IMG/VR virus record: IMGVR_UViG_3300037851_000345
Span: 124,067 to 188,066 of that record
From: a virus
Lineage: Duplodnaviria > Heunggongvirae > Uroviricota > Caudoviricetes
DNA length: 64,000 bases
Reading direction: 5' to 3' (one strand)
Below the pieces are notes generated by a model. That model made no database searches. It was given only the letters and a program-made list of their open reading frames with translations, and had not been told where the DNA came from. The position numbers were made by a program, and so were the translations under genes. Positions 15,725-50,316 of this stretch are shown piece after piece. Positions within the stretch are counted from its first letter, which is position 1. Each line of letters begins with the position of its first letter.

Positions 15725-16207
15725 TCACCACGGATTGACTACTAGAAGGTGGTTTTTTGGTGGGTTTCAGGCCCGTGGTGGCGTTTTTATCCCTGCCCCC
15801 ACTATTTTTTATTATCAGTTCTGTAACAAGTCGTGTTATATAATTTATTTAAAGGAGAAATAAATGGAAAAGAAGAATTTATGTTTCACAAGGGTTGCCC
15901 CCTTTCCAACAAGCACAAACTGTACCTTGTCTTACACGCCGAAATGTGCAGTCAAGTTGAAGATAATCTCTTCACTAGAGATGCCAAGCTAAATTCAGCC
16001 AAAATGAAAGAAGATTGGATTTCTTTAAACTCTACAAATCCGTACAAATTTCCCGATTGCGCAAATTGTACCTTGAATGTGATATGAGGATATTCGGGTT
16101 GGTCAGGATATTCATGCCGTACAGCGGAAGCCTATCGCAAGCCCAATGTTCTTGATAAATTCAAGAATTGGGTGCGATATATGCGCCATGTATTTTAAAA
16201 CAAACGC

Positions 16208-16848: not shown

Positions 16849-17268
16849 ATGAAATTTAGAATCGTGGAATCTTTGGAACAGGAAGCCTTGCAATTTGATA
16901 TGCCTGAAGACTTCGTAAAAAGTTTTCCGAAAGTCTATCACGGCACAAATACCGAATTTCGAAAGTTCAACCCGAAGAAGGGTGCGCAGGGAACCATTTG
17001 GTTCACGAATGATAAGGACACAATCATCAGAGGGGAGTCGGGTGCGCAAGGGACGAAGTACGTAATGGAGAGGTATCTCACAGGGAAAAATTGGGCAGGA
17101 TGGAATGAGTACGACAAATACATGATAGTCCAATTAATACAAATGGGATACGATGGGGTCAAACTTCCCGCAGGGGAACACAACGACTATATGCTTTTTG
17201 ATAACAAAAATATTTACACGGAAAAAGAATTGATTAATCTTTGGAAGAAGGTACGAAATGGAATTTAA
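16849..17268 (+). CDS. hypothetical protein, MKF family (MKFRIVE)
   Basis: 139 aa ORF. Confidence 0.45.
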   Translation: MKFRIVESLEQEALQFDMPEDFVKSFPKVYHGTNTEFRKFNPKKGAQGTIWFTNDKDTIIRGESGAQGTKYVMERYLTGKNWAGWNEYDKYMIVQLIQMGYDGVKLPAGEHNDYMLFDNKNIYTEKELINLWKKVRNGI

Positions 17269-18646: not shown

Positions 18647-19143
18647 AATTTAAATTGATGCATCCTACATTCTATATGGCAGTTGGAATCAGCGGCTCAG
18701 GTAAAAGTACAATTCTCGACAAAGTGTTTGAACGAGAAGTAATCGTTGAACCCGATGCAATCCGCAAAGAACTTACAGGTTCGGTCAGCGATCAAAGCAA
18801 AGACTTTGTGGTGTGGAAAATAACAGCAGACAGAATAAAGAAAAATCTCGAAACAATGGGTCTTGCGGTTCTAGATGCCACCAACACCAAGTCTTTCCTG
18901 CGCAATCAATTCCTGAAGAACATTCCCGCAGGAGTCCACAAGGTAGCCATCATCTTTCAGCCGCAAGGTACGGACGAGGAAATCGTGGACAAACTCTACG
19001 GAAGAGTGCAGGGTGATTTAACAAGTGGCAAAGACAGAAGCGCAGTACCGAAAGAAGTAATTGCACGACAACTAACTCAGTTTAAGAACGGTTTACAAAA
19101 TATTGAATCCCAGTTCGATGAGGTACAAACAATTCCTTCGTGA
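18643..19143 (+). CDS. P-loop kinase, polynucleotide 5'-kinase-like
   Basis: AVGISGSGKST is a Walker A motif at the N-terminus. Its size and tRNA-repair context fit a T4 Pnk kinase domain. Starts MKFKLM. Confidence 0.5.
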   Translation: MKFKLMHPTFYMAVGISGSGKSTILDKVFEREVIVEPDAIRKELTGSVSDQSKDFVVWKITADRIKKNLETMGLAVLDATNTKSFLRNQFLKNIPAGVHKVAIIFQPQGTDEEIVDKLYGRVQGDLTSGKDRSAVPKEVIARQLTQFKNGLQNIESQFDEVQTIPS

Positions 19144-21403: not shown

Positions 21404-22177
21404 ATGAAATTTATATTATTAGAAATACAAAGTAGACAAGAATATTTAAAAAATCCTAAACTTTGTAAATTTTGTCAGAAACCACTCCCGTATGAACATC
21501 ATACTGTTAAACAATTTTGTAGTAAATCGTGCGCGGCACAATTTAACAATAGTAACAGGATATTCAACCCAAAGGAAGATAAGCGAACAAAATACATTCC
21601 TTGTACTAGATGTGGGAAAACAACACTTATTAATATAAGAACTAATCCTAATAAGTCCTTTTGCCCTGATTGTAAAGAAATAATGAAACAACAAAAAAGA
21701 ACTAGAAAAAATACAAAACGGTTCAAACACACGTGTGCTTCTTGTGGTCGGGATTTTTTATCTTCTAAACAGAATACCAAATATTGTAGTGTATCCTGTG
21801 GGGCTAAACATATGATGTCTACAGGGAAAATAAAGTCTTGGAGTACGAGAAATATAAAAAGTTATCCCGAAAAATTCTTTGAAAGAGTATTACAAAATAA
21901 TAATCTATCTTATGAAATGAATAAGCCTGTTACTTTTAATGGTAAAACTTATTTTTTGGATTTTTATTTTGCTGATAAAAATATAGATTTAGAAATTGAT
22001 GGTAAACAGCACGATTATCCTGATAGAATTACTAGTGATTTAATTAGGGATAAGATTTTAAAGAAAAATGGGATAAAAGTGTTTAGAATTAAATGGAAAT
22101 CCATAAATACAGAAGATGGTAAGAACGAAATAAGAAAGAATATTCAAAACTTTTTGGATTTTTACAAAAATGATTGA
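21404..22177 (+). CDS. homing-endonuclease-like protein: Cys-rich zinc fingers + C-terminal DUF559/Vsr-like PD-(D/E)XK nuclease domain
   Basis: C-terminal YFLDFYF..LEIDGKQH..D..RD..L...G..V.R fits the DUF559 restriction-endonuclease-like fold. Paralogous to 29556 and 26653. Starts MKFILLE. Confidence 0.55.
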   Translation: MKFILLEIQSRQEYLKNPKLCKFCQKPLPYEHHTVKQFCSKSCAAQFNNSNRIFNPKEDKRTKYIPCTRCGKTTLINIRTNPNKSFCPDCKEIMKQQKRTRKNTKRFKHTCASCGRDFLSSKQNTKYCSVSCGAKHMMSTGKIKSWSTRNIKSYPEKFFERVLQNNNLSYEMNKPVTFNGKTYFLDFYFADKNIDLEIDGKQHDYPDRITSDLIRDKILKKNGIKVFRIKWKSINTEDGKNEIRKNIQNFLDFYKND

Positions 22178-22220
22178 CAAATGAAACACAATATGATATA
22201 ATATTTTTGGTAGTTTATTT

Positions 22221-22297
22221 GGGGATGTTGGCTAATTGGTAAGCCACTGCGTTTGGGTCGCAGTCATTTGGGGGTTCAAGTCCCTTCATCCTCACCA
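22221..22297 (+). tRNA. tRNA-Pro (anticodon TGG), CCA encoded
   Basis: Acceptor GGGGATG/CATCCTC, anticodon loop TTTGGGT and T-arm GGGGG-TTCAAGT-CCCTT folded by hand. Confidence 0.7.
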
Positions 22298-22341
22298 GAA
22301 TGAAGGGCTGTTTTGGATTTTCAAAAAAATTCCAAAAGGGC

Positions 22342-22370
22342 TTGACAGATACAACAACCTGTGTTATAAT
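22342..22370 (+). promoter_or_regulatory. sigma70-type promoter TTGACA-17-TATAAT with TGn extension
   Basis: cTTGACAgatacaacaacctgtgtTATAAT lies upstream of the tRNA array. Confidence 0.55.
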
Positions 22371-22627
22371 AGGTTATATTGACTCGTAGGCTACGAGTCT
22401 TAGGGTGTTTGACATTTTTGGTTTTGTGGCTTTTTGAAGTGGGGGTGATATTCCTTCGGCTTTCGGACTGTGGGTAATATTGCCCCCGCTTCTTTCTTAT
22501 CTCAATGGTAGTTTAATTTGGTTAGAACCCCATAACAGAGAGCATAAGTAATTATGCCGCTCACAACAGGCGATCTCGGTTCGAATCCGACCTAGCGAGA
22601 CAGCAATATTATATCTTTTTAATTAAT

Positions 22628-22700
22628 GGGGCCGTGGCACACAAGTAGGCGCGCCACGTTGTCAGCGTGGAATATGCGGGGGCAGTACCCGTCGGTCCCG
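22628..22700 (+). tRNA. tRNA-Asp (GTC); non-canonical T-loop GGCAGTA
   Basis: Acceptor GGGGCCG/CGGTCCC, anticodon arm CCACG-TTGTCAG-CGTGG and T-arm GCGGG-GGCAGTA-CCCGT. Confidence 0.6.
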
Positions 22701-23289
22701 CCATGCTTTTTTATGAGTCGGACTATCCAACGACAGAGAGCCGTCATTCCACTCTATGAGTAGCCTTGTAGACGTGCAGGTTCAGCGTTCATGCCGCAGA
22801 GGGTTGGCTCAACTCCTAGCAATTTTATTGTGGTGTTTTTCTTCGTATTCTTCTCCACCAAGATTAAAAAGAAGAAGTAGCAATTTTTTGGGACTGAACA
22901 TAGGCATTTCCTATTAAGTAGGCCCCTTTTGGCTGTTTACCAAGTGTAAGCGGTGCATAGAGGTTTCCTTCGCTGAACCATTTTGAAAAATCAGCGGAGT
23001 GGCGGGGTGATGGTCATTAGACCGTCCCAATTGAATCTAGTATGACCTAAAGTATCCCATGAAATTCGGCGGTCAGAAAGATTTTTATTGAGGTTAGTGG
23101 TGAGCCGTGGGGAGTGGTACTCGGAAGTCGTATCCTAGTTCCTATACTCAAAAAACCACCAAGGTAAATGGATGTAGTATTTCGTATTGAGTGTATTAAT
23201 AGATGTATCGCAGGAGGGAGGTCAATATCTCAGATGGTTTCATATGCCATCTTAAAATCGTGTAACTCGATTTCCTGCTACCATTCTTT

Positions 23290-23364
23290 CGCAGGATATC
23301 CTAGAGGCAAGGAACAAGTTTCATAAACTTGAAGCCGAAGGTTCGAGTCCTTCTCCTGCGACCA
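23290..23364 (+). tRNA. tRNA-Met/Ile2 (CAT), CCA encoded
   Basis: Acceptor CGCAGGA/TCCTGCG, anticodon arm CAAGT-TTCATAA-ACTTG and canonical T-arm GAAGG-TTCGAGT-CCTTC. Confidence 0.7.
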
Positions 23365-23376
23365 AAGCCATTTTAT

Positions 23377-23450
23377 GGCCCTATCGTCTAATAGCAGGAC
23401 AATGGTTTTTCAAGCCATGAACGTCGGAGCGTAACCGGCTAGGGCTACCA
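23377..23450 (+). tRNA. tRNA-Glu (TTC); non-canonical T-loop AGCGTAA, CCA encoded
   Basis: Acceptor GGCCCTA/TAGGGCT and anticodon arm ATGGT-TTTTCAA-GCCAT. Confidence 0.55.
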
Positions 23451-23459
23451 AGAAATATT

Positions 23460-23533
23460 TTCTCCATCGTCTAATATAATAGGACAGCGGCGGATATTTG
23501 CCGTCAATCCCTGAGTATCACAGGGTGGAGATT
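23460..23533 (+). tRNA. tRNA-like gene, atypical (8-nt anticodon loop GGATATTT; identity unresolved)
   Basis: The acceptor has 6 bp, the D-arm GTCT/GGAC, the T-arm CCCTG-AGTATCA-CAGGG. The anticodon stem GCGGC/GCCGT encloses 8 nt. Confidence 0.3.
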
Positions 23534-23554
23534 TTTTGTTGCTGTAGAGTAATT

Positions 23555-23626
23555 GGCCCTGTCGTCTAACGGTCAGGATGAAAGACCCTCAATCTTTAGG
23601 TCGGGTTTCGATTACCCGCAGGGCTA
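23555..23626 (+). tRNA. tRNA-Glu (CTC) with C33
   Basis: Acceptor GGCCCTG/CAGGGCT perfect, anticodon arm AAAGA-CCCTCAA-TCTTT and T-arm CGGGT-TTCGATT-ACCCG. Confidence 0.5.
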
Positions 23627-23868
23627 CTTTTGATTAGTAATGATATTAATAATATGGGTGCGATAGGGTTGGTAAGAAATCCAACAAGTACTCTAGTAGA
23701 TAGGAACTGACAATCTGAAGGGCTAGAATTACTGAAAAAAGAGTTTGTCACTTTGCTGGTGGAATTCCAGCCGCACCCAGCCGAAATTTTAAGCTCATTT
23801 AGTTCAATAAGAGAACTGGCGCCCGACAATCGTCGGACGGCGGGGCAGTACTATCATCGAGCATGTAT

Positions 23869-23953
23869 GCCGTTGTTGGGCAGTGTAGTGAGCCTAGCGC
23901 GCTGTAAACGCGTCCACCGCAAGGTGTTGGTAGTGCAATTCTACTCAGCGGCA
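23869..23953 (+). tRNA. tRNA-Tyr (GTA), type II with variable-arm hairpin
   Basis: Acceptor GCCGTTG/CAGCGGC, anticodon arm GCGCG-CTGTAAA-CGCGT, variable arm CACC-GCAA-GGTG and T-arm GGTAG-TGCAATT-CTACT. Confidence 0.55.
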
Positions 23954-24540
23954 CATTTTGTTCTTAGGTTTAAAGCATCCCTTAGAAGAATAGGATGCTA
24001 CCTTAGAATCCGTTGGCAGAAATAAATCTTCGACCTTCCACGACCAAGGCCGGAGATTTAGGTCGACGGACATAAAAATTAAAATTAGATGGAACTCAAA
24101 GGCAACGGGTTGTCGTGGAACCTGTTAGCCTCTGAGTAAGGTTCGATTTTAAGTCAGCCACCCTGCGAAATTATGTGACTTATATAATGGGACAGGGGTG
24201 GTGCTTTTAATACAGTTAGCGGAACCATTCTCAATCGCACAGAGATTTGGAACAATTCCGTTAGCGGTCAGTATAGTATAATATGGCAGAGAAAGAGAAT
24301 CGTCAGAAATTCGTTGGTGGTGCGACATTCGCAGATTTCTGTAGGTTCAAATTGGAGTGTTTAAAAAGTGTGCGGAAGGTCAGGCTGTTGGTAATACTGT
24401 TTGACCACGGTATTACCGATGGTCTCGCACCAAGATTGACTTAGGTTAAGGCAAAGTAGGCCAATTATACGAGCCTACATCTGCCTAAGTACTGCCCTCA
24501 TGCGTCAAGTCTCTGTCGGCAGTCATCCATTATAACTTTT

Positions 24541-24568
24541 GGGGTGGGATCACCCACCCCGCATTTTT
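24541..24568 (+). terminator. rho-independent terminator-like hairpin
   Basis: GGGGTGGG-atca-CCCACCCC stem followed by gcaTTTTT. Confidence 0.5.
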
Positions 24569-24650
24569 CTAGTTTCGATTTAAGACGTTAACCCCCGCCA
24601 GCAAAGTGCGGGGAATCCAACTTAAATTTCACCCGAAAGGGTGAACAGAT

Positions 24651-24721
24651 TGCCGTGTAACTCAATAGCAGAGTATTCGCCTTATAAGCGAAAAACGGTG
24701 GGGCAGTACCACCCACGGCAA
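24651..24721 (+). tRNA. tRNA-Ile (TAT); T-loop GGCAGTA
   Basis: Acceptor TGCCGTG/CACGGCA perfect, anticodon arm TTCGC-CTTATAA-GCGAA perfect. Confidence 0.6.
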
Positions 24722-24755
24722 GTTTCCCTGAATTTATATAAGTTCGGAGAGGAAT

Positions 24756-24831
24756 TGTGCTAATGGTGTAGGCTGGATAAACACACTCGCCGTCAAAGCG
24801 GGAGACTTGGGTTCAAATCCCAACGGCACAT
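24756..24831 (+). tRNA. tRNA-like gene with putative anticodon TCA (would read UGA); tentative
   Basis: Canonical T-arm TTGGG-TTCAAAT-CCCAA and acceptor TGTGCTA/CGGCACA at 6 of 7 bp. Anticodon arm CTCGC-CGTCAAA-GCGGG has an unusual G33. Confidence 0.35.
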
Positions 24832-25076
24832 GTGAAAGAAAAAGAATCTTATCATTCTAGACAAGATAAGGTTTTGAATTATTTCCCCTCTCCGTTATTT
24901 TGCAATAATTAAGAGGCAACCATTGGTGTACGGATGCACGTCCCTTGGCGGGGACAGAGAGGTTCAACTCCTCATTGGTGAGAATAGGGATTATTTCATT
25001 CATCTAGAAGGGTGGATAAAAACGATTTCTCAGCCTCTAAGCAATATTTCTTTAACACAATAACCCCTTTTATTAT

Positions 25077-25146
25077 GGGGCTATAGTATAACGGGAGTAC
25101 GACTGGCCTGCAACCAGTAAATCGGGGTTCGATTCCCCGTAGAAAT
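25077..25146 (+). tRNA. tRNA-like, anticodon arm reads TGC (Ala) but acceptor stem unresolved
   Basis: D-arm GTAT/GTAC, anticodon arm ACTGG-CCTGCAA-CCAGT and canonical T-arm CGGGG-TTCGATT-CCCCG. The 3' flank does not pair with the 5' GGGGCTA. Confidence 0.3.
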
Positions 25147-25174
25147 TTTTCAATTTTAAATTAACTATAAATAT

Positions 25175-25247
25175 GCCGCCGTATCTCAATTGGCAGAGGG
25201 TCAGTTTTGTAAACTGAATGTTGGAGGTTCGATGCCTCTCGGCGGCT
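25175..25247 (+). tRNA. tRNA-Thr (TGT)
   Basis: Acceptor GCCGCCG/CGGCGGC perfect, anticodon arm TCAGT-TTTGTAA-ACTGA and T-arm GGAGG-TTCGATG-CCTCT. Confidence 0.7.
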
Positions 25248-25251
25248 TTTC

Positions 25252-25323
25252 GCCTACTTAGTTCAATCAGCAGAATGAGAGTTTCGTAAACTTTAGACAG
25301 CGGAGCATAACCGTTAGTAGGCT
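25252..25323 (+). tRNA. tRNA-Thr (CGT); non-canonical T-loop AGCATAA
   Basis: Acceptor GCCTACT/AGTAGGC perfect and anticodon arm AGAGT-TTCGTAA-ACTTT. Confidence 0.6.
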
Positions 25324-25373
25324 GCTTACCTAATGAAGCGTCCAACGCTACGATACGTAAAGGGGATTAATTT

Positions 25374-25625
25374 ATGAATAAAAAATTAAAAGAATGGTTT
25401 GATGCTCACCCTAAAGAATGGCATGGTTGTCTGATTTGCTCACATTGGAATAAATATTCTTACTGTTATTATGCGTTCACTTCAAAAAGTGAAACCTGTG
25501 ATTTTTTTCTCAGAAAAGAAAAGGATATACCAAAAGAAAGATTGTGGAGATTTGGGAAAACCAAAAACAAAAGAAAGTTAGCATTGGTCAGAAAACAAAG
25601 TTTGCACGAATTGGCTTGTAAATAG
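25374..25625 (+). CDS. hypothetical small Cys-rich protein
   Basis: 83 aa ORF in a tRNA-free gap; CLICSHW...CYYAF...CDFF. Confidence 0.35.
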   Translation: MNKKLKEWFDAHPKEWHGCLICSHWNKYSYCYYAFTSKSETCDFFLRKEKDIPKERLWRFGKTKNKRKLALVRKQSLHELACK

Positions 25626-25626
25626 T

Positions 25627-25698
25627 GCCGCTGTAGTTTAAATAGCAGAATGAGGACTTGGTAAGTCTTAGACGGTGGGGCAGTACCACTCTGCGGCT
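25627..25698 (+). tRNA. tRNA-Thr (GGT); T-loop GGCAGTA
   Basis: Acceptor GCCGCTG/CTGCGGC at 6 of 7 bp, anticodon arm AGGAC-TTGGTAA-GTCTT. Confidence 0.55.
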
Positions 25699-25930
25699 TA
25701 TCGCTTATCTCATCTACCAAGTGTAGAAGGAGTTGGGCCATCGTTATGCGTTGGCCTTTCTGATAACCTAACCGCTAGCGGCGTGGAAGGACACCGCATT
25801 GTAGCGAAAGCCTATGTCCTCAATTGGACAAAACCCGTAACCCGAAAGACCAGGGTGGCAAGCGATACGGTTAAACTACAATGGCTAAATAACGGTCAGC
25901 GGGAATCAAGCCCCGCCTAGCGGTATTGTG

Positions 25931-25997
25931 CCCTATGATGTAATGGAAAGCAACAATCGCTTCAAACGATTGAGAAAGGGTTCGAATCCTTTTAGGG
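25931..25997 (+). tRNA. tRNA-like gene with canonical anticodon loop CTTCAAA (anticodon TCA, reads UGA); acceptor and D-stem weak
   Basis: The anticodon stem CAATCG/CGATTG is 6 bp and the T-arm AAGGG-TTCGAAT-CCTTT is canonical. The acceptor is approximate. Confidence 0.35.
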
Positions 25998-26009
25998 GTG
26001 CGAATTTCT

Positions 26010-26080
26010 GCGGGTTTGGTGTAATAGTAGCACCTGACGTTGCCAACGTTAGAGTATCGGGGCAGAGTCGATAATCCGCT
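26010..26080 (+). tRNA. tRNA-Gly (GCC); T-loop GGCAGAG
   Basis: Acceptor GCGGGTT/AATCCGC and anticodon arm TGACG-TTGCCAA-CGTTA. Confidence 0.55.
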
Positions 26081-26085
26081 TTTGT

Positions 26086-26168
26086 GGAGAGATGTCAGAG
26101 TGGTCTATCGTGGCGGTTTCGAAAGCCGTTCCCCGAAAGGGGCGCAAGTTCGAATCTTGCTCTCTCCG
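26086..26168 (+). tRNA. tRNA-Ser (CGA), type II
   Basis: Acceptor GGAGAGA/TCTCTCC perfect, anticodon arm GCGGT-TTCGAAA-GCCGT, variable hairpin CCCC-GAAA-GGGG and T-arm GCAAG-TTCGAAT-CTTGC. Confidence 0.6.
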
Positions 26169-26173
26169 TGTAG

Positions 26174-26244
26174 GACGGCGTGGCCGAACAGTCAGGCAGC
26201 GGTCTGCAAAACCGTCTAAATGGGTGCGACTCCCTTCGCCGCCT
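26174..26244 (+). tRNA. tRNA-Cys (GCA)
   Basis: Acceptor GACGGCG/CGCCGCC at 6 of 7 bp, anticodon arm GCGGT-CTGCAAA-ACCGT and T-loop TGCGACT. Confidence 0.5.
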
Positions 26245-26257
26245 TTTGAAATCTTAT

Positions 26258-26329
26258 GCGGGTTTGGTGTCAATAGTAGCATAAAAGTCTTCCAAACTTT
26301 AGGTACGGGAGCAAAGCCCGTAACCCGCT
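26258..26329 (+). tRNA. tRNA-Gly (TCC); T-loop AGCAAAG
   Basis: Acceptor GCGGGTT/AACCCGC perfect and anticodon arm AAAGT-CTTCCAA-ACTTT perfect. Confidence 0.6.
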
Positions 26330-26652
26330 CCAAAAATATGAGAGGTAAAAATAGAACAAGATAAACATGAATGTGAGTACAACAAAAGTCTTTTTTTAGT
26401 GGAAAAAAACTTCAGACTTTTCAGACACAAGAAAGTCTACTTTACTTGGGCGAAGGCTCTTGACGGGTGTATTGAATTTGGCTCCCATTTGACCTTTGCC
26501 AAAAATAATCGCAGATTTGAGATTTATTTTGACTTAGGACTTTTACGAAGAGTAATTATTATCAATATGCACGATGTTAGAGTGGGGGTGTAGTTTAGCG
26601 TATTTTTGATAACGGATGTCTCCGAAAACAATAAATAGTAGTAGGAGACAAA

Positions 26653-27375
26653 ATGTATTATTGTAAAATATGTGGAAAAGGATTTGAAATCAAACAACAA
26701 TTGGGTGGACATCGGGCTACCTGTGGAACTGTAAGGAAAAAAGGATATAAAAAAAGAACATATAGGGGCTTACCCATTAAATCCAAACCACCCAAAAATC
26801 CATTTGGAAAATGTAAATTTTGTGGGGAACAAGTAGGAAGAAGTATTTATCACCATGTCCCTGTGTGCATCAAAAATCCCAATAGAGAAAAAAATATTGA
26901 AGCACATCTTAAAAATCTAAAAAGAGGAAAAGACAATTCTTCCTCTAATCCTGAAATCAGACAGAAAATAGCAGAAACAGCAAAAAGAAAAATATTAGAA
27001 GGAACATGGCACAATTCATTTTCAAGAGCAAGAACCCATATTTACAAAGGTATTCATTTTTATGGCACTTGGGAACTGAAGTATGCAAAATATTTAGACA
27101 AAAAGAAAGTTAAATGGATAAAAAATAAAAAGACATTTCCTTATACCTATGAAGGAGAAGAACATAGATATACTCCTGATTTTTACTTGGAAAAAGAAGA
27201 TTCTTATGTGGAGATAAAAGGATACCCAACAGAAAAAGACAGAGCAAAATGGAGAGATTTTCCACACCCTTTAAAAGTTCTTTTTGGTAAAGATTTATTT
27301 GAAATGAATATTATTAATTGTTATAGAGATTTAGAAACTAAAAAAGATGTAAGGCGTGGGAGTGTGGCGCAATAG
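26653..27375 (+). CDS. homing-endonuclease-like protein (C2H2-type zinc finger N-terminus + PD-(D/E)XK-like C-terminal domain)
   Basis: CKICGKGF..GGHRATC is a C2H2-like finger. C-terminal YTPDFYLEKEDSYVEIKGY resembles the PD..E.K core shared with 21404 and 29556. Sits inside the tRNA array. Confidence 0.5.
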   Translation: MYYCKICGKGFEIKQQLGGHRATCGTVRKKGYKKRTYRGLPIKSKPPKNPFGKCKFCGEQVGRSIYHHVPVCIKNPNREKNIEAHLKNLKRGKDNSSSNPEIRQKIAETAKRKILEGTWHNSFSRARTHIYKGIHFYGTWELKYAKYLDKKKVKWIKNKKTFPYTYEGEEHRYTPDFYLEKEDSYVEIKGYPTEKDRAKWRDFPHPLKVLFGKDLFEMNIINCYRDLETKKDVRRGSVAQ

Positions 27376-27427
27376 GATAACGCGGCATCCCGTTAAGTTG
27401 AAGATTGGTGGTTCGAGTCCATCCACT
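27358..27427 (+). tRNA. tRNA-like gene, CCA encoded; anticodon unresolved (8-nt loop CGGCATCC)
   Basis: Acceptor GGGAGTG/CACTCCC perfect and T-arm GGTGG-TTCGAGT-CCATC canonical. The middle region does not give a standard anticodon arm. Confidence 0.35.
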
Positions 27428-27432
27428 CCCGC

Positions 27433-27524
27433 CATTTTTGTTGCGGTGGGGAAATTGGTAGACCCGCTACTTTGAGGTGGTAGTGCAGTAATGCATGAGA
27501 GTTCGACCCTCTCCCGCAACACCA
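27433..27524 (+). tRNA. tRNA-Leu (GAG), type II, CCA encoded
   Basis: Acceptor GTTGCGG/CCGCAAC perfect, anticodon arm CTACT-TTGAGGT-GGTAG, variable hairpin TGCA-GTAA-TGCA and T-arm GAGAG-TTCGACC-CTCTC. Confidence 0.65.
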
Positions 27525-27535
27525 ACGCAATTTTT

Positions 27536-27640
27536 GAATGAATGTTGAAAGCAAAGGTTACTAGGTCGCACCTGAGTGAGTTCGATTCTCCAAATCGCCG
27601 CGGTCGGCGTGGAGTTCGATTCCCTAATCAACATTCATTC
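27536..27640 (+). repeat. 13-bp inverted repeat (GAATGAATGTTGA / TCAACATTCATTC) enclosing about 79 nt with two direct copies of a T-arm-like GAGTTCGATTC motif
   Basis: The two arms are a perfect reverse complement. The interior carries tgagtgagttcgattctcc and gtggagttcgattccct. Confidence 0.5.
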
Positions 27641-27647
27641 TTTTTAT

Positions 27648-27723
27648 GGCAAGGTCGCTTACGTGGTCAGAGCATCCGCCTGAAGCGCGGAAAATGGGTG
27701 TTCGATTCACCCCCTTGCCACCA
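27648..27723 (+). tRNA. tRNA-Phe (GAA), CCA encoded
   Basis: Acceptor GGCAAGG/CCTTGCC perfect, anticodon arm TCCGC-CTGAAGC-GCGGA and T-arm GGGTG-TTCGATT-CACCC. Confidence 0.7.
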
Positions 27724-27736
27724 TTTGAATTATTAT

Positions 27737-27820
27737 GCCTAGGTGGTGGAATTGGGATACCGTGCGGACTTAAAATCCGTTGGCCTTCGGGCCATGTGGG
27801 TTCGAACCCCACCCTAGGCA
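27737..27820 (+). tRNA. tRNA-Leu (TAA), type II
   Basis: Acceptor GCCTAGG/CCTAGGC perfect, anticodon arm GCGGA-CTTAAAA-TCCGT, variable hairpin GGCC-TTCG-GGCC and T-arm GTGGG-TTCGAAC-CCCAC. Confidence 0.65.
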
Positions 27821-27827
27821 GTTTTGT

Positions 27828-27901
27828 GGGGTCGTAATTCAACGGCAGAATAGTTGACTTTTAATCAATCTATAGAAGTTCGATTCTTCTCGGCCCCACC
27901 A
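27828..27901 (+). tRNA. tRNA-Lys (TTT), CCA encoded
   Basis: Acceptor GGGGTCG/CGGCCCC, D-arm ATTC/GAAT, anticodon arm GTTGA-CTTTTAA-TCAAT and T-arm AGAAG-TTCGATT-CTTCT. Confidence 0.65.
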
Positions 27902-28070
27902 TTTTTTGCAATTTTAACCGACAGCGGTGTGGATAGAGTACACACTATCGTTTGCGTGTTTTCTAGAGGAATACTAGACAGATGGACGATTCCTGCACCT
28001 AATCTAGAAGGTAAAGATACGATGTAAAAGTAGGAAAGTTGGAATATAAATTCCAACCTGTCGGTTTTAT

Positions 28071-28142
28071 GGGTCTATATGTCAACGGCTAGACGAACTG
28101 ACTCTTAATCAGTAGATGGAGATTCGATTTCTCCTAGACCCA
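28071..28142 (+). tRNA. tRNA-Lys (CTT)
   Basis: Acceptor GGGTCTA/TAGACCC perfect, anticodon arm ACTGA-CTCTTAA-TCAGT perfect and T-arm GGAGA-TTCGATT-TCTCC. Confidence 0.7.
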
Positions 28143-28148
28143 CTTTGC

Positions 28149-28222
28149 GCCCTGTTAGTTCAACGGATTAAGAATATGGTGCTACGAACGCCAAGATGGA
28201 AGTTCGATTCTTCCACGGGGTA
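28149..28222 (+). tRNA. tRNA-Arg (ACG)
   Basis: Acceptor GCCCTGT/ACGGGGT with 2 G-U pairs, D-arm GTTC/GAAT, anticodon arm TGGTG-CTACGAA-CGCCA and T-arm GGAAG-TTCGATT-CTTCC. Confidence 0.6.
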
Positions 28223-28238
28223 CTTTGAATTTTTAGAT

Positions 28239-28312
28239 AGGGGATTATGTTAACGGTAGACTACTTCGTTTACACCGAAGGAGCGCGGGTTCGATTCCTG
28301 CATCCCCTACCA
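28239..28312 (+). tRNA. tRNA-Val (TAC), CCA encoded
   Basis: Acceptor AGGGGAT/ATCCCCT perfect, anticodon arm CTTCG-TTTACAC-CGAAG perfect and T-arm GCGGG-TTCGATT-CCTGC. Confidence 0.65.
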
Positions 28313-28322
28313 TTTTATTTTT

Positions 28323-28415
28323 GGATGCGTCAAACGTAATTGGTAACGTCCCGGTCTTGAAAATCGGTCGCGGGGTTAACTACTTCGCGTGGGAGTTCAA
28401 GTCTCTCCGCATCCG
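28323..28415 (+). tRNA. tRNA-Ser (TGA), type II
   Basis: Acceptor GGATGCG/CGCATCC perfect, anticodon arm CCGGT-CTTGAAA-ATCGG, long variable hairpin and T-arm GGGAG-TTCAAGT-CTCTC. Confidence 0.6.
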
Positions 28416-28418
28416 CAT

Positions 28419-28503
28419 GGAAGTTTGACAGAGTAATAATGTGCCGACCTGCTAAGTCGTGGCCTACGTAACAGTAGCGTGTGTGCGACCCACACAACTT
28501 CCG
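28419..28503 (+). tRNA. tRNA-Ser (GCT), type II
   Basis: Acceptor GGAAGTT/AACTTCC perfect, anticodon arm CCGAC-CTGCTAA-GTCGT at 4 bp and T-arm GTGTG-TGCGACC-CACAC. Confidence 0.5.
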
Positions 28504-28561
28504 AATTGAATTTTTATTGTTTTGATATTATAAATACCGCCATAGTATTTGGGGGTGTAAA

Positions 28562-28804
28562 ATGTCAGAACAAAACAAAGTAGAAGTAAGCCACATGGGA
28601 CGTTACGCAGACAACTTGCAAAATGTGTTGGACAAACTAGGAGCCGTGAAATTGTTGAGAGCAGACTACGAGAATGACTACCAAGGCCACGTAGACGTAG
28701 ACGTATTATTGGGGGACGGCAAGGTGTTCAGTTACAACTACTCCTACGGGAGTTGTAGTGGTTGCGATGAGTGGGAAGATAGGTCTTATCAGACGGAGAG
28801 GTAG
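28562..28804 (+). CDS. hypothetical small protein
   Basis: 80 aa ORF with SD gggggtgtaaaatg in a gap of the tRNA array. Confidence 0.4.
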   Translation: MSEQNKVEVSHMGRYADNLQNVLDKLGAVKLLRADYENDYQGHVDVDVLLGDGKVFSYNYSYGSCSGCDEWEDRSYQTER

Positions 28805-28943
28805 AGGCTGTGATGTTAGAGGAAGCAACCATTTTCGCAAATTGGCACGACTACAGTTTATTCATCAACAAGGCAAGGCTGAAAAACGTTCTAGGTGTTG
28901 AATAGGGGGCTGAAAGGCTCTCTTCTTCTACAAGCAATTTTAT

Positions 28944-29015
28944 GTCCCCGTGGTGTAACGGATAGCGCAAGGGTCTTCTAAATCCTTAGTAGGGGTTCAA
29001 TTCCCTTCGGGGATG
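28944..29015 (+). tRNA. tRNA-Arg (TCT)
   Basis: Acceptor GTCCCCG/CGGGGAT, anticodon arm AGGGT-CTTCTAA-ATCCT and T-arm AGGGG-TTCAATT-CCCTT. Confidence 0.6.
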
Positions 29016-29020
29016 CATAT

Positions 29021-29091
29021 AGCCGTTTGGTGAAATAGTATCACACAGGGCTTTGAACTCTGAGGCGGTGGGGCAGAACCATCAACGGCTG
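29021..29091 (+). tRNA. tRNA-Gln (TTG); T-loop GGCAGAA
   Basis: Acceptor AGCCGTT/AACGGCT perfect, D-arm GTGA/TCAC and anticodon arm CAGGG-CTTTGAA-CTCTG. Confidence 0.6.
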
Positions 29092-29153
29092 AAGAATTAA
29101 TACTGACAGCGGCATGAAGAAATCGTAAACACGAGCATCCGGCAGGCCAAGTG

Positions 29154-29176
29154 AAAAAATTAAGGCCTAATTTTTT
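29154..29176. terminator. AU-rich palindromic hairpin (possible bidirectional terminator)
   Basis: aaaaaattaaggcctaatttttt is near-perfectly palindromic around GGCC. Confidence 0.25.
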
Positions 29177-29359
29177 CGTAAAGTTTAGCGGAGATTGGAA
29201 AACCTTTTGTATCCTGTATCATTCAAATATGCGTCTCTAATGAATTTGAATGTTGAGATACATTTGCGAATGGCAAGCCACCGATGAACACATCTAGATG
29301 TGTTTATTAGTAGTCATCCAATTTAGTTGGGGTAACGTCCAACCTGTCAATTTATATAT

Positions 29360-29431
29360 TGGGTGGTAAGTCAATAGAAGACGGCTGGCGTCGGAAGCCA
29401 GAAGTTGTGGGTGCAAGTCCCACCCACCTAA
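29360..29431 (+). tRNA. tRNA-Pro (CGG)
   Basis: Acceptor TGGGTGG/CCACCTA, anticodon arm CTGGC-GTCGGAA-GCCAG perfect and T-arm GTGGG-TGCAAGT-CCCAC. Confidence 0.5.
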
Positions 29432-29438
29432 TTTTTAT

Positions 29439-29514
29439 GGGGTTAGTGGTGTTAATAGTAGCACAACTGATTGTGACTCAGTAGGACAGGATGCAAATTC
29501 CTGCTATCCCTCCA
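29439..29514 (+). tRNA. tRNA-His (GTG) with genome-encoded G-1 and CCA
   Basis: An extra 5' G precedes the acceptor GGGTTAG/CTATCCC. D-arm GTGT/GCAC, anticodon arm ACTGA-TTGTGAC-TCAGT perfect and T-arm CAGGA-TGCAAAT-TCCTG. Confidence 0.6.
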
Positions 29515-29555
29515 AAATTTGAACTCAAAACTTATCAAAAACAATAAATAATAGT

Positions 29556-30476
29556 ATGAAGGTTCAACTCACTAAAATATGTTTGGAATGTGGTAAGTCT
29601 TTTATTTTTAAAGATAAGAGACAAAAATTTTGTAATAATTCTTGCTCTGCCAAATACAGCAACAAACACAGAAATTACAATCCATCAGATGATAAAAGAA
29701 CAAAGCAAATGAATTGTTCGGGTTGTGGTAAAAAAATTCTGGTCGATATTAGGGCAGGTCAAAATGTTAAATGTAAAAAATGTAATGAACTGCGAAGAAA
29801 AAAATATTCCTCACGATATATAATTAAAAATGATAAATTAATATGTAAATATTGTGGACAAGAAAAATGTTTGCGGCCTGATGTGTGTAGAAAACACCAA
29901 ATATTTCCCACATTAATAAACTATTTTGGATTTGATAAAACCAAAATAGGAACAATAAAAATTTATGAAGAATTTGACCGAATAAAAAATAAAATTATTG
30001 AAGATTATTGGAATAAAAAATTAAGTACTTTAGATTTATCAAAAAAATATATGTATTCCTCAAATAATATACGACATTTTTTAAAGGAAATGAATATTTC
30101 TTTAAGAAATTTATCTTCATCAATAAGAAATGCTGTTTTAAATGGTAAAAATATATCACACGGAATAAACCAATATAAATGCGGTTGGCACACTACTTGG
30201 GATAATAAACAGGTTTTTTATCGAAGTTCTTACGAATTGAATTATGCCGAAGAATTGGATAAACAAAAAATAGAATATGAAATGGAAAAATTAAGAATAC
30301 TTTATTGGGACACACAAAAACAAATACAAAGAGTAGCCATTTCTGATTTTTATATTCCATCTCAAAATAAAATAATAGAAATTAAATCTCCTTATACTTT
30401 AAATGAACAAAATATGAAAGATAAAGAAAAAGCATATAAAGAACACGGATATAAATTTGAATTAATTGTTATGTAA
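29556..30476 (+). CDS. homing-endonuclease-like protein (Cys-rich zinc fingers + PD-(D/E)XK-like C-terminus); paralog of 21404
   Basis: The N-terminal FCNNSCSAKYSNKHRNYNPSDDKRTK..C.GCGKK aligns with the 21404 protein. C-terminal DFYIPSQNKIIEIK resembles a D..E.K core. Confidence 0.55.
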   Translation: MKVQLTKICLECGKSFIFKDKRQKFCNNSCSAKYSNKHRNYNPSDDKRTKQMNCSGCGKKILVDIRAGQNVKCKKCNELRRKKYSSRYIIKNDKLICKYCGQEKCLRPDVCRKHQIFPTLINYFGFDKTKIGTIKIYEEFDRIKNKIIEDYWNKKLSTLDLSKKYMYSSNNIRHFLKEMNISLRNLSSSIRNAVLNGKNISHGINQYKCGWHTTWDNKQVFYRSSYELNYAEELDKQKIEYEMEKLRILYWDTQKQIQRVAISDFYIPSQNKIIEIKSPYTLNEQNMKDKEKAYKEHGYKFELIVM

Positions 30477-30477
30477 A

Positions 30478-30565
30478 CGCTAGCGTGTTGGAACTGGTAT
30501 TCATCGTGCGCTTAGAACGCACGGCCTGAAAAGGATTGGGGGTTCGAATCCCTTCGCTAGCACCA
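30478..30565 (+). tRNA. tRNA-Leu (TAG), type II, CCA encoded
   Basis: Acceptor GCTAGCG/CGCTAGC perfect, anticodon arm GTGCG-CTTAGAA-CGCAC perfect and T-loop TTCGAAT. Confidence 0.65.
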
Positions 30566-30590
30566 AGTATTTAATTTTAGGAAAGATAAA

Positions 30591-31373
30591 ATGAAGAAAG
30601 ATGACATTGGAAATAGGATGAAATCGAACTACGAGGACAGGACACGAATTTGTCTGCCCCGTAGGACGCACACCATTATCCGAATTGACGGCAAGGCCTT
30701 TCACACGTACACGCGTGGGCTTACCCGCCCGTTCGATGATGGGTTCATCGAAGATATGGACGCAACTGCGGCCTATCTCTGCAAGAACATTCAAAACGCC
30801 AAGTTTGCCTACGTGCAGTCTGATGAGATTTCTATTCTTCTTTCAGATTACGATAAGATTACAACGGATGCTTGGTTCGACAACAACATTCAAAAAATGG
30901 CAAGCGTGTCGGCAAGTATGGCAACGAGGGCTTTCAATGAGGCAAGGACGAAGAGGCTTATTTATGACGAAAGTCCATTAGTTCCTGCACACGAAGTTCC
31001 TATCCGAATGAAGTGGGCAGAGTTCGACAGCAGGGTGTTTCAAATCCCTGAGTGGACTGAGGTTGAGAACTACTTCATTTGGCGACAACAGGATTGCGTT
31101 TGCAACAGTATCCTTTCAGTTGCACAATCTCTCTACTCGCACAAGGAAATGAACGGTAAGAACACTTCAGAACTTCAAGAAATGATTTTTCAGAAAGGAA
31201 CGAATTGGAACGACTTTGCTCCCAAGTACAAGAGGGGTAGAGTTATCAGGAAAGACCATACCGTTGTCGGTGAAACGGTACGTAGTAAATGGATTTCCGT
31301 TGAGCCACCGTCATTTACGCAAGAGCGGCAAATTATGTGCTTCTACGTGGAGAAGGCGGGGCAAGTATTTTAA
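30591..31373 (+). CDS. Thg1-like protein (tRNA-His guanylyltransferase family; 3'-5' nucleotidyltransferase, tRNA 5'-end repair)
   Basis: IRIDGKAFHTYTRGL and YVQSDEISILL match the Thg1/TLP catalytic motifs. Confidence 0.7.
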   Translation: MKKDDIGNRMKSNYEDRTRICLPRRTHTIIRIDGKAFHTYTRGLTRPFDDGFIEDMDATAAYLCKNIQNAKFAYVQSDEISILLSDYDKITTDAWFDNNIQKMASVSASMATRAFNEARTKRLIYDESPLVPAHEVPIRMKWAEFDSRVFQIPEWTEVENYFIWRQQDCVCNSILSVAQSLYSHKEMNGKNTSELQEMIFQKGTNWNDFAPKYKRGRVIRKDHTVVGETVRSKWISVEPPSFTQERQIMCFYVEKAGQVF

Positions 31374-31374
31374 T

Positions 31375-31461
31375 GCTAAGGTGCTGGAACTGGTATTCAA
31401 TGCGGTCTCAAAAGCCGTAGCCGGTAACGGATTGTGGGTTCGAATCCCACCCTTAGCACCA
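31375..31461 (+). tRNA. tRNA-Leu (CAA), type II, CCA encoded
   Basis: Acceptor GCTAAGG/CCTTAGC perfect, anticodon arm GCGGT-CTCAAAA-GCCGT, variable hairpin CCGG-TAA-CGG and T-arm GTGGG-TTCGAAT-CCCAC. Confidence 0.6.
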
Positions 31462-31462
31462 C

Positions 31463-31538
31463 GGGTCAGTCGGTTAATTGGATAAACCATTGGTCTCCAA
31501 AACCAAGACTGGGGGTTCAACTCCCTCCTGACCCGCCA
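31463..31538 (+). tRNA. tRNA-Trp (CCA), CCA encoded
   Basis: Acceptor GGGTCAG/CTGACCC perfect, D-arm GGTT/AACC, anticodon arm TTGGT-CTCCAAA-ACCAA perfect and T-arm GGGGG-TTCAACT-CCCTC. Confidence 0.7.
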
Positions 31539-31575
31539 TGTTTTTCGTGCCACAAAACCAAAAATGCAACACTCT

Positions 31576-31586
31576 GTGGTATAATT
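31576..31586 (+). promoter_or_regulatory. extended -10 promoter element TGTGGTATAAT
   Basis: Located 28 nt upstream of SD aggagg and the band-7 gene start. Confidence 0.45.
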
Positions 31587-31613
31587 AAAGTAAGAGCGAA
31601 GGAGGCTCAAAGA

Positions 31614-32576
31614 ATGGGCGGTATTGTTGTATTGGCCTTAGCGGTCATAGGTCTTATTGTTATGTGGATTGGTAAGGGCATTCGCGCCGAGGCAATCAAG
31701 GGGCATGATGAGGAATCAGCCAATGCGGGACGCATGGGGTATTTCGTTGGTCTGTGTATGCTCATTGTATTTGGGCTTGGTTTTCTGTCTCGCTGTATCA
31801 CTACAGTCGATGCGAGTGAGGTTAAAGTCCAAATCATGTTCGGTAAGGTACTCGATAATGTGCTGACAGAGGGTATCAACTTTAAGAGTCCGTTTGCCTC
31901 CACTGTTACGTACAATGTGCAATTGCGGGAGACCACGATGGATATTAAGGACGGCAACTATCTTCAGGCATTGACTTCCGACAAGTTGGCGGTCAAGGTT
32001 GACGCTACGATTTGGTGGAAGATTCTTAAAAATCAAGTGAAGATGATTCGGCGTGATATATCCGCAACGGAGAGCGATATTGACGATATGATTACGTTCC
32101 CCGCAATTCGTTCAGCCGTCAGGGACGCTTCGGTTTATTACACCTTTGAAGAGATTACGTCCGTGAAAGGTCGTACCGAATTGACAAAAAAGATTGACGA
32201 AATCCTAATTAAACTAACACACGACAAGGGTGTAGTCATCGACACGGTTATGATTCGGAATGTAGTTCCCGAAGACCAAAGGGTTACTGCCGCTATCGGT
32301 ATGAAACTTGAACAGCAACAGCAACTTCAGGCCAAGGAGTACGAGTTGAAAAAGTCCGAAATGGATGCAAAGATTCGTATTATGAACGCCGAAGGTATTG
32401 CGAAGGCTCAGGACATTATTCATCAGACCTTGACCCCGCAGTACTTGCAGTTTGAGGCCATTCAGATGATGAAGGACGTTGCTCACTCCAAGAACTCCAC
32501 CTTCGTCTTCGTGCCGACAAGTTCAAGTCAGGTCGGTATACCAATGGTCTATTCGTTGAAGGATTTTCAGAAGTAA
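31614..32576 (+). CDS. SPFH/band-7 (prohibitin/HflK/C-like) membrane protein
   Basis: An N-terminal TM helix is followed by the SPFH-domain layout and an AEG(IV)A..Q region. Start set to the Met after SD; the 31434 N-terminal extension in the ORF track overlaps tRNA-Trp. Confidence 0.65.
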   Translation: MGGIVVLALAVIGLIVMWIGKGIRAEAIKGHDEESANAGRMGYFVGLCMLIVFGLGFLSRCITTVDASEVKVQIMFGKVLDNVLTEGINFKSPFASTVTYNVQLRETTMDIKDGNYLQALTSDKLAVKVDATIWWKILKNQVKMIRRDISATESDIDDMITFPAIRSAVRDASVYYTFEEITSVKGRTELTKKIDEILIKLTHDKGVVIDTVMIRNVVPEDQRVTAAIGMKLEQQQQLQAKEYELKKSEMDAKIRIMNAEGIAKAQDIIHQTLTPQYLQFEAIQMMKDVAHSKNSTFVFVPTSSSQVGIPMVYSLKDFQK

Positions 32577-37667: not shown

Positions 37668-37668
37668 T

Positions 37669-50249: not shown

Positions 50250-50316
50250 TATAATGAAAGGAATGGTATTTTTGTGATTGAGGATAAGAAAATCAAAATC
50301 AAGGAGAACGAGGATT

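Follow-up and report, generated by a model that had tools for sequence, protein, structure and literature searches.

The 64,000-nucleotide stretch of DNA analyzed here (referred to as the window; positions 124,067 to 188,066 of IMG/VR record IMGVR_UViG_3300037851_000345) comes from a large, uncultivated phage that has an extensive tRNA array along with a set of genes for tRNA maturation and repair. The array contains two tRNA-like genes, candidates A and B, whose anticodon triplets read UCA and would pair with the stop codon UGA. Judging from its orthologs, candidate B appears to be an allele of the phage tRNA-Arg(UCG) gene that is specific to this strain and of very recent origin, generated by a single G-to-A transition at position 36 (G36A). 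Candidate A is an aberrant tRNA-like gene and not a dedicated suppressor. We consider it about an even bet (probability of roughly 0.5) that B is a functioning but weak UGA suppressor to which A contributes little or nothing, in a phage that uses the standard genetic code.

Two tRNA-like genes with UCA anticodons in a phage tRNA array

The initial annotation, made from the sequence, had noted two UCA tRNA-like genes within the array. Both were called by ARAGORN and by the Rfam tRNA model RF00005, although with the two lowest tRNA scores of the array (the others range from 35 to 66 bits) and only marginally above the model's gathering score of 29 bits. The E values in a 1.8-kb search were 3.4e-4 for A and 1.4e-4 for B. 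Direct reading bore out the arm details given for the two genes, including the odd G33 of A, as well as the presence of a canonical tRNA-Trp(CCA) to which the UCA genes are additional. With this tRNA-Trp in place, decoding of UGG is independent of A and B.

22221-31538, plus strand: tRNA array, about 34 tRNA or tRNA-like genes including candidates A and B
24756-24831, plus strand: candidate A, "tRNA-SeC (tca)" in ARAGORN; Rfam limits 24757-24830, 31.5 bits
24792 and 24793-24795, plus strand: G33 and UCA triplet of candidate A, by direct reading
25929-26001, plus strand: candidate B, "tRNA-SeC (tca)" in ARAGORN; Rfam limits 25931-25997, 32.9 bits
25962-25964, plus strand: anticodon TCA of candidate B, by direct reading and ortholog alignments
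28149-28223, plus strand: tRNA-Arg(ACG), ARAGORN
31463-31538, plus strand: canonical tRNA-Trp(CCA), ARAGORN; Rfam 59.2 bits

The window has a G+C content of 41% and densely packed open reading frames (ORFs). ARAGORN accounts for 24 genes of the array, and a further 10 reach or exceed the gathering score of Rfam RF00005. Scattered among the tRNAs are ORFs resembling homing endonucleases and one gene of the Thg1 family. A comparison with 50,697 deposited phage genomes gave no near match to the window. Relatives were gathered via the terminase, the CCA-adding enzyme, a neighboring protein of 83 amino acids, and a DNA pattern, yielding five that were distinct.

IMGVR_UViG_3300037461_000469 (loci L001, L005, and L007): closest relative, proteins 93 to 97% identical
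IMGVR_UViG_3300014204_000109 (loci L006, L008, and L010): about 79% identical
Ga0105097_10180547 (locus L009)
Ga0378408_0006014 (loci L012 and L015)
Ga0265297_10219589 (locus L014)

In addition, a Logan assembly of run SRR12687606 (L013) was 100% identical to the window over positions 22374 to 28625, and it holds A, B, the UCA allele, and a one-base deletion of C in the acceptor stem of B. As this assembly is independent, the features of A and B are not an artifact of a single assembly.

Candidate B as a putative one-base derivative of tRNA-Arg(UCG)

In all five relatives the position of B is occupied by a tRNA-Arg(tcg) gene, immediately 5′ of Gly-GCC, Ser-CGA, and Cys-GCA, and B is 93% identical to the L005 ortholog. 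Base 25964, corresponding to tRNA position 36, is G in five of five relatives and A only in the window and the identical L013 contig. G36A shifts the pairing of the anticodon from CGA/CGG to UGA and yields an A36-A37-A38 run. Such a run is used by MiaA for i6A37, a modification that aids the decoding of codons starting with U. B differs from its closest ortholog by four changes in all: G36A itself, the loss of one C from a CCCC run at the 5′ end of the acceptor (25928 to 25931), an A-to-G substitution just upstream, at position -2 (25928), and the replacement of two T-stem pairs. The C deletion and the upstream substitution are, again, strain specific.

The body of the gene retains the architecture of a tRNA. 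The anticodon arm consists of a 5-bp stem, AAUCG/CGAUU, plus a C26-G44 pair, and a CUUCAAA loop that has U33 and, at position 37, a purine; the T arm, AAGGG-UUCGAAU-CCUUU (25976 to 25992, plus strand), is intact. T-stem pairs 49-65 and 50-64 are A-U/A-U in B and C-G/U-A or U-A/C-G in the relatives; because these are compensated exchanges for other Watson-Crick pairs, the structure must have been under selection along the window lineage. Copying of the T arm from another tRNA was rejected, since no second copy was found in the window or the fetched loci other than in the same-strain L013. In the alignment of the B family (five sequences), 94% of the cloverleaf cells are paired and six pairs have changed on both sides, with a covariation score that none of 500 shuffles equaled. 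Pairing and covariation identify the family as a genuine tRNA, in whose compensated evolution the window copy has shared. A DNA pattern for the family recovered from IMG/VR only contigs already known plus one 1.1-kb metagenome contig, and there were no further homologs in GTDB genomes or in INPHARED phages (megablast, blastn).

The acceptor stem is where B departs from a canonical tRNA. Its strands, GCCCUA and UAGGGGU, can form either six pairs with a bulged G or five pairs with U1xU72 and G2xG71 mismatches, instead of the regular 7 bp, and RNAfold places them in a slipped register rich in G-U pairs. As the top of the stem is unpaired, Rfam aligns B only over model positions 3 to 68.

The parental tRNA may have been at some liberty to change. 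Although CGA is in use in the phage (119 of 930 Arg codons), a tRNA-Arg(ACG) can read CGU, CGC, and CGA through inosine wobble at position 34. The tRNA-Arg(ACG) of the array could hence cover CGA, which would render tRNA-Arg(UCG) partly redundant. The tRNA genes of this part of the array (24651 to 26245) have diverged very unevenly from their L005 orthologs, with differing columns numbering 0/85 in Ser(CGA), 1/73 in Cys, 4/71 in Gly(GCC), 7/75 in B, 8/78 in A, 20/74 in Thr(UGU), and 26/73 in Ile(UAU), a pattern that suggests cassette-like replacement of single tRNA genes. The tRNA-Arg of L012/L014, for its part, appears to be a 5′/3′ chimera of two acceptor types.

Arginine identity and predicted suppressor activity of B

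The main determinants recognized by bacterial arginyl-tRNA synthetase are A20, C35, U/G36, and A/G73 (review, PMC9976931). B retains A20 (the A following G18-G19 in its D loop, AAUGGAAA), C35 (25963), and discriminator G73 (G26000, in the register of the orthologs), and charging with arginine is expected on these grounds. In the proposed mechanism, G36A in the resident tRNA-Arg(UCG) would create a UCA anticodon able to pair with UGA, and B, if matured, would be mostly arginine charged and cause low-level insertion of arginine at UGA. There is precedent for the decoding step, since G36A conferred UGA suppression in five out of six isodecoders of the human tRNA-Arg(UCG) (PMC12361112). Any such activity would be weak or very recent; a low efficiency is to be expected from an acceptor stem short of one base and from a genome that has 29% TGA stops and no adaptation to suppression.

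In its orthology, its single-base change to UCA, and its Arg identity elements, B has the appearance of an opal suppressor derived from tRNA-Arg(UCG). It shares with laboratory and human suppressors of this kind the parent isoacceptor and the G36A mutation, with A20, C35, and a purine discriminator kept, and like the laboratory suppressors it would have arisen by point mutation of a resident gene and not by acquisition. Unlike these, B is a natural gene of an uncultivated phage, a putative suppressor that carries an acceptor deletion and T-stem swaps. Escherichia coli tRNA-Arg UGA suppressors were reportedly used by McClain and colleagues in 1990 to map arginine identity, and the T4 tRNA-Arg UGA suppressor is a further example.

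The phage uses the standard genetic code

Genetic code usage was examined with a crude, greedily selected set of 115 genes, comparing codes 11, 4, and 15 and a "TAA sense" code. Under code 11, 91% of the window is coding. Making TGA a sense codon (code 4) raises this figure only to 91.6%, a smaller gain than that obtained by freeing TAG or TAA. The stops comprise 61 TAA, 33 TGA (29%), and 21 TAG, so that TGA is not depleted, and 20 of the 33 TGA stops lie in ATGA overlaps, in keeping with the previous remark that TGA still terminates genes in the window and often overlaps ATG starts. In-frame ORF pairs joined by a stop show no excess of TGA (41, versus 37 for TAG and 55 for TAA). The 9.7 kb beyond the right end of the window behave in the same standard manner, again with no gain under code 4. 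In a Pfam scan of 20 ORFs (nearly all those of at least 300 amino acids, the terminase and the ligase-like ORF at 59529 to 60569 being outside the scan), no release factor or aminoacyl-tRNA synthetase domain was found; specifically, there was no RF1, RF2, or tryptophanyl-tRNA synthetase among the scanned ORFs of at least 300 amino acids.

These data bear on whether other parts of the genome, in their late or lysis genes, truly reassign UGA in a code 4-like manner, enabled by A and B as suppressors. The initial annotation had invoked the stop-recoded late code of crAss-like and Lak phages and had placed any recoding outside the window or taken it to be partial, proposing comparison of translation tables 11 and 4 and a search for a tryptophanyl-tRNA synthetase or a release factor 2 inhibitor as checks. 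UCA tRNAs are indeed present, such systems are known, a TGA suppressor can also occur in relatives of recoded phages that keep the standard code (bioRxiv 10.1101/2021.08.26.457843), and the approximately 74 kb examined belong to a genome of probably 170 to 240 kb. However, the 64-kb window, terminase and DNA/RNA-repair genes included, is 91% coding under code 11, the code 4 gain is no larger than that from freeing other stops, TGA-joined ORF pairs are not in excess, TGA makes up 29% of the stops, the flanking 9.7 kb give the same result, UCA is found in none of the relatives, and RF1, RF2, and tryptophanyl-tRNA synthetase were not seen among the scanned ORFs of at least 300 amino acids. We therefore regard reassignment as very improbable.

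The comparison with recoded phages leads to the same view. Suppressor tRNAs accompany stop codon recoding in crAss-like, Lak, Agate, and Jade phages (Borges et al., bioRxiv 10.1101/2021.08.26.457843), and a phage tRNA that pairs with a stop codon is common to them and to the phage studied here. In the latter, by contrast, there is a single candidate recoded gene in 64 kb, TGA contributes 29% of the stops at 41% G+C, the suppressor is not conserved, and the scanned ORFs yielded neither a release factor nor an aminoacyl-tRNA synthetase. The inserted amino acid would also differ, tryptophan there and, as expected from B, arginine here. Lacking many recoded genes, stop depletion, a conserved suppressor, and the accompanying enzymes in the material examined, the phage is not a member of the stop-recoding systems.

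ARAGORN's "tRNA-SeC" label, for its part, would suggest selenocysteine tRNAs, but the program prints it for any tca anticodon. At 73 to 76 nucleotides, with a variable region of 4 to 5 nucleotides, A and B have neither a long extra arm nor the 8/5 acceptor/T architecture. The selenocysteine tRNA model, Rfam RF01852 (at least 47 bits), has no match at either locus, its only, weak and subthreshold match being to the Ser(UGA) gene at 28323. As their structure refutes the label and B is the ortholog of an Arg tRNA, the probability that these are selenocysteine tRNAs is negligible.

Candidate A and its variable anticodon loop

The acceptor stem of A, UGUGCUA/(C)GGCACA, forms six pairs and an A7xC66 mismatch and so falls short of 7 bp. 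A 3-nucleotide linker, AUG, precedes the D stem (GUGU/ACAC), the D loop has 11 nucleotides, the anticodon arm reads CUCGC-CGUCAAA-GCGGG, and the T arm is canonical (UUGGG-UUCAAAU-CCCAA). In the minimum-energy fold, a longer anticodon stem capped by a CAAA tetraloop takes the place of the 7-nucleotide loop.

The only clear ortholog of A, at L005:17706-17781, has a nearly identical body, in which the D- and anticodon-stem changes keep pairing. Its loop, CGCAGAAG, has 8 nucleotides, or 6 if C32-G38 is closed; ARAGORN reads it as "tRNA-???(caga)", and the gene falls below the Rfam gathering score. The two loops are three single-base indels apart, and 4 of the 8 to 9 differing columns fall within the 8 loop columns (hand count; Fisher's exact P of about 0.005). 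In the 79% relative, the gene that follows tRNA-Ile(UAU) resembles A in its T arm, C66 mismatch, and G33, with a CGCAUUG loop, although its homology is uncertain. The gene is not present in L015. The T-arm pattern of A hit 58 loci; apart from the two relatives already known, these are tRNAs of host type and unrelated to A, and no other homologs were found in IMG/VR, GTDB, or INPHARED. From these alignments, the UCA of A is a strain-specific reading of an unstable, noncanonical loop and not a conserved anticodon. Since neither UCA is conserved among the relatives, A and B are not a dedicated suppressor pair.

Two structures close to A may be mentioned. Directly 5′ of tRNA-Ile(UAU) and candidate A lies a strong terminator-like hairpin (24540 to 24561). 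An insertion of about 110 nucleotides (24900 to 25010, plus strand) that is not in the closest relative has the direct repeat CATTGGTG on both flanks and encloses a degenerate tRNA-like fragment (24918 to 24982), reported by ARAGORN at a relaxed threshold as "tRNA-???(gg)".

The loop changes of A, and perhaps that of B, might alternatively serve antidefense, as bait for, inhibitors of, or a means of escape from host anticodon nucleases. Evasion of such nucleases by phage tRNAs through anticodon-loop mutations is described in a report on T5-type tRNAs (PMC10264068). The setting that it portrays, a large array in a lytic-type large phage with RNA repair enzymes, is shared by our phage, and as in that account the variation of A clusters in the anticodon loop. 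The tRNAs described there nonetheless keep a normal anticodon and decoding, whereas in A the loop contains G33 and varies in length, and in B it is the anticodon that has changed. Between phages that are 93 to 97% related, the body of A is conserved and its pairing kept, but three indels separate the loops, and the tRNA repair and maturation kit would fit a conflict with tRNA-cleaving defenses. Yet B is only one loop base away from its parent, loops of 6 to 8 nucleotides or with G33 are unlike any known host tRNA substrate, and the hypervariability of A rests on two to three homologs. An antidefense role seems to us rather improbable.

A possible read-through client

The initial annotation had left room for read-through of selected genes. 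One candidate client was found, with an in-frame TGA that starts at position 16085, and no other credible gene.

15881-16198, plus strand: small conserved Cys-rich gene with an in-frame TGA at 16085-16087

The gene reads ...NCTLNVI-TGA-GYSGWSGYSCRTAEAYRKPNVLDKFKNWVRYMRHVF-stop. Its counterpart in the closest relative (L005:8592-8942) has TGG at the site plus one extra 18-nucleotide GYSGWS repeat unit, from which it follows that the TGA arose at the junction of an 18-nucleotide repeat contraction. The conserved C-terminal part behind the TGA comprises 36 codons, in which four synonymous and two nonsynonymous changes separate the window from L005. In addition, the 20 C-terminal residues past the TGA (RKPNVLDKFKxWVRYxRxVF) are invariant in P0001, an approximately 60% identical protein from an ENA metagenome. 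The residue at the TGA position is variable, so that any inserted amino acid should be tolerated. In a screen for internal stops with greedy gene sets (95 genes of the closest relative with matches over about 46 kb of the window), this TGA was the sole credible case; apparent internal stops at 30504-31547, 37336-37674, 50203-50793, and 63249-63635 were rejected as antisense artifacts. The in-frame TGA is consistent with read-through and hints, if weakly, at a client, the only plausible beneficiary of B that emerged. The gene is not present in the relative L015.

Small Cys-containing proteins of this kind form a multicopy family, with members at 15881-16198, 63257-63466, and 63467-63718 (plus strand) and at about L001:18491-18550. 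They start with M..K.CPLSNK.KL..VLH.E.C, and no Pfam domain is recorded for P0001, their single database homolog.

Weak suppression or decay

The data also accommodate another account, in which both loci are decaying or nonfunctional, the UCA triplets and the TGA gene are coincidental, and nothing is suppressed; B would be redundant through tRNA-Arg(ACG) and host tRNAs, and A would be an old tRNA relic. This is a distinct possibility, if not one that we would put our money on. Several observations speak for it. A and B have the lowest Rfam scores in the array, and the acceptor deletion of B is unique to this strain. The L005 ortholog of A falls below the Rfam threshold with a non-tRNA loop, and A is missing from L015. 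Other array members are defective as well (an Ala-like gene, 25081 to 25142, with four unpaired acceptor positions; the tRNA-Arg of L012/L014 with C6xA67), the turnover of tRNA cassettes is fast, at 0 to 26 differences per gene relative to L005, the genome has no adaptation to suppression, and it contains other decayed ORFs. A and B also share with the tRNA pseudogenes of phage clusters low scores, acceptor defects, and strain-specific presence.

Several findings tell against weak suppression by B. The score of B, 32.9 bits, compares with 44.2 for its L005 ortholog, and a 1-nucleotide acceptor-stem deletion combined with an altered anticodon would likewise be expected of a tRNA no longer under selection. 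A must be a poor decoder given its G33 and alternative tetraloop fold. Read-through extensions are not shorter after TGA (median of 7 codons, versus 8 for TAA/TAG), and among 31 orthologs with comparable C termini, three that stop with TAA or TAG in the closest relative stop with TGA in the window, with no change in the reverse direction; the genome thus shows no adaptation to efficient UGA suppression. The putative client is N-terminally frameshifted relative to L005 and belongs to a multicopy family, so that it may simply be decaying itself. Finally, positions 3 to 329 (plus strand) match a 186-amino-acid ORF of the closest relative (L076:9432-9992) with 54% identity and two TAA and two TAG stops. 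This segment, upstream of the first gene of the window, is probably a decayed gene and indicates that pseudogenization does occur in this strain.

Decay, however, should also break pairs, and every stem substitution in A and B relative to L005 keeps pairing. Unlike in tRNA pseudogenes, the stem changes are compensated, and the T arms and elbow nucleotides are intact. A random substitution would be a G-to-A change at position 36 roughly once in 200, and a loop such as that of A would read UCA about once in 64. The differences in A, moreover, are clustered in the loop (P of about 0.005) and not spread evenly along the gene. Two independent loci with a derived UCA in one strain are unlikely by chance alone. 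The compensated stem substitutions, and the coincidence in one strain of two derived UCA loops and an in-frame TGA in a conserved gene, are what place weak suppression by B ahead of decay in our assessment.

In a bolder scenario, the strain would only just be embarking on a code change, without prior TGA depletion. Two array genes would independently have become UCA, the indels in the loop of A having restored 7 nucleotides, the first in-frame UGA would be kept functional by read-through, and the phage's Thg1-like 3′-5′ polymerase might repair the mismatched acceptor 5′ end of B. We deem this unlikely. A phage that uses the standard code and has acquired a TGA suppressor has been proposed to represent a step preceding code change, in an example in which TGA accounts for 2.7% of the stops (bioRxiv 10.1101/2021.08.26.457843). 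By analogy, B would be a comparable precursor state, in which it was one of the phage's existing tRNAs that mutated and TGA is not scarce in the genome.

Were B active as a weak suppressor, it would represent a natural stop codon suppressor that a single point mutation had created from an existing phage tRNA, with the parental allele persisting in close relatives and a candidate client in the same genome. This would correspond to the earliest stage in models of phage code drift, minus the TGA depletion that those models assume. Should B be inactive, it would serve as a caution that genes labeled "SeC" or "Sup(TCA)" by ARAGORN or tRNAscan in phage arrays may be one-base variants of ordinary tRNAs that imply no recoding.

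tRNAs with a noncanonical elbow and a structured RNA in the array

Nine tRNAs of the array have a noncanonical elbow. All were missed by ARAGORN under default settings and scored 31 to 54 bits with Rfam.

22628-22700, plus strand: Asp GUC
23377-23447, plus strand: Glu UUC
24651-24721, plus strand: Ile UAU
25252-25323, plus strand: Thr CGU
25627-25698, plus strand: Thr GGU
26010-26080, plus strand: Gly GCC
26258-26329, plus strand: Gly UCC
29021-29091, plus strand: Gln UUG
29440-29511, plus strand: His GUG

Their T loops follow R-G-C-A-N-N-N (for example, GGCAGUA and AGCAUAA) instead of U-U-C-R-A-N-N, and their D loops (AAUAGCA and AAUAGUA) are without G18-G19. The Ile(UAU) ortholog of the closest relative has a canonical elbow, which implies that elbow types are swapped between close phages. 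The T arm GGUGG-GGCAGUA-CCACC together with GG-less D loops also occurs in unrelated IMG/VR contigs (L091, L095, L106, L111, L117, L118, and L129), in four of which (L111, L117, L118, and L129) Rfam identified the T-arm-bearing gene itself as a tRNA. No description of this tRNA class was found in the literature searched. In one of these unrelated viral contigs, a strong manA RNA motif (RF01745, 181 bits; L091:3075-3263, minus strand) adjoins a noncanonical-elbow tRNA.

Between tRNA-Thr(GGU) and candidate B there is a further conserved RNA.

25770-25925, plus strand, leader from about 25699: conserved structured, tRNA-like RNA of about 156 nucleotides

An acceptor-like helix of 7 bp (ACCGCUA/UAGCGGU), three of whose pairs covary, closes the RNA. 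The next hairpin bears the invariant motif GUGGAAGGACAC, the long middle contains a GNRA hairpin, GCGAAAGC, and possibly a helix of 8 bp (CAUUGUAG/CUACAAUG), and a T-arm-like hairpin comes last. Homologs are present in L005, L012/L015, and L009, with two copies in L006. No Rfam family matched at an E value of 10 or below, and ARAGORN called no transfer-messenger RNA. The RNA is reminiscent of the stable RNAs termed "species 1/2" in the tRNA cluster of T4. The noncanonical-elbow tRNAs and this RNA may be of wider interest than the UCA genes.

The tRNA-Ala(UGC)-like gene at 25081 to 25142 (plus strand) pairs GGGGCUA with a 3′ UAGAAAU, so that the top four acceptor pairs are impossible, and Rfam covers only model positions 5 to 66. 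The defect is conserved in L005:17889-17950, and the gene is either a pseudogene or a tRNA requiring acceptor-end repair.

Maturation and repair genes and other features of the window

The tRNAs of the array have no encoded CCA. The genes for tRNA maturation and repair, together with the other features of note, are as follows.

11692-12909: T4 Rnl1-type RNA ligase
17258-18646: CCA-adding enzyme
18643-19143: AAA_33 kinase
22174-22202 and 22342-22370, plus strand: perfect (12/12) sigma-70 consensus promoters at the head of the array
30591-31373, plus strand: Thg1-family enzyme (PF04446, 99.9 bits), inside the array
34655-36577, minus strand: large terminase, T4-type, about 26% identical to the terminases of Caulobacter phage Cr30 and cyanomyoviruses
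49299-50249: RlaP nucleotidyltransferase
59529-60569: second ligase-like ORF (precomputed Pfam: RNA_ligase and, faintly, ATP-dependent DNA ligase)

Both promoters consist of TTGACA, a 17-nucleotide spacer, and TATAAT with an extended -10 TG. Acceptors with a mismatched 5′ end, that of B among them, might in principle be open to repair by a Thg1-like 3′-5′ polymerase.

The window also carries cargo that is unusual for a phage: a 516-amino-acid protein with multiple PAS domains (40860 to 42410, minus strand), an SPFH/Band-7 protein (31434 to 32576, plus strand), a lysine-2,3-aminomutase-like radical S-adenosylmethionine (SAM) enzyme (14621 to 15724, plus strand), and a B12-binding radical SAM enzyme (32894 to 34051, plus strand).

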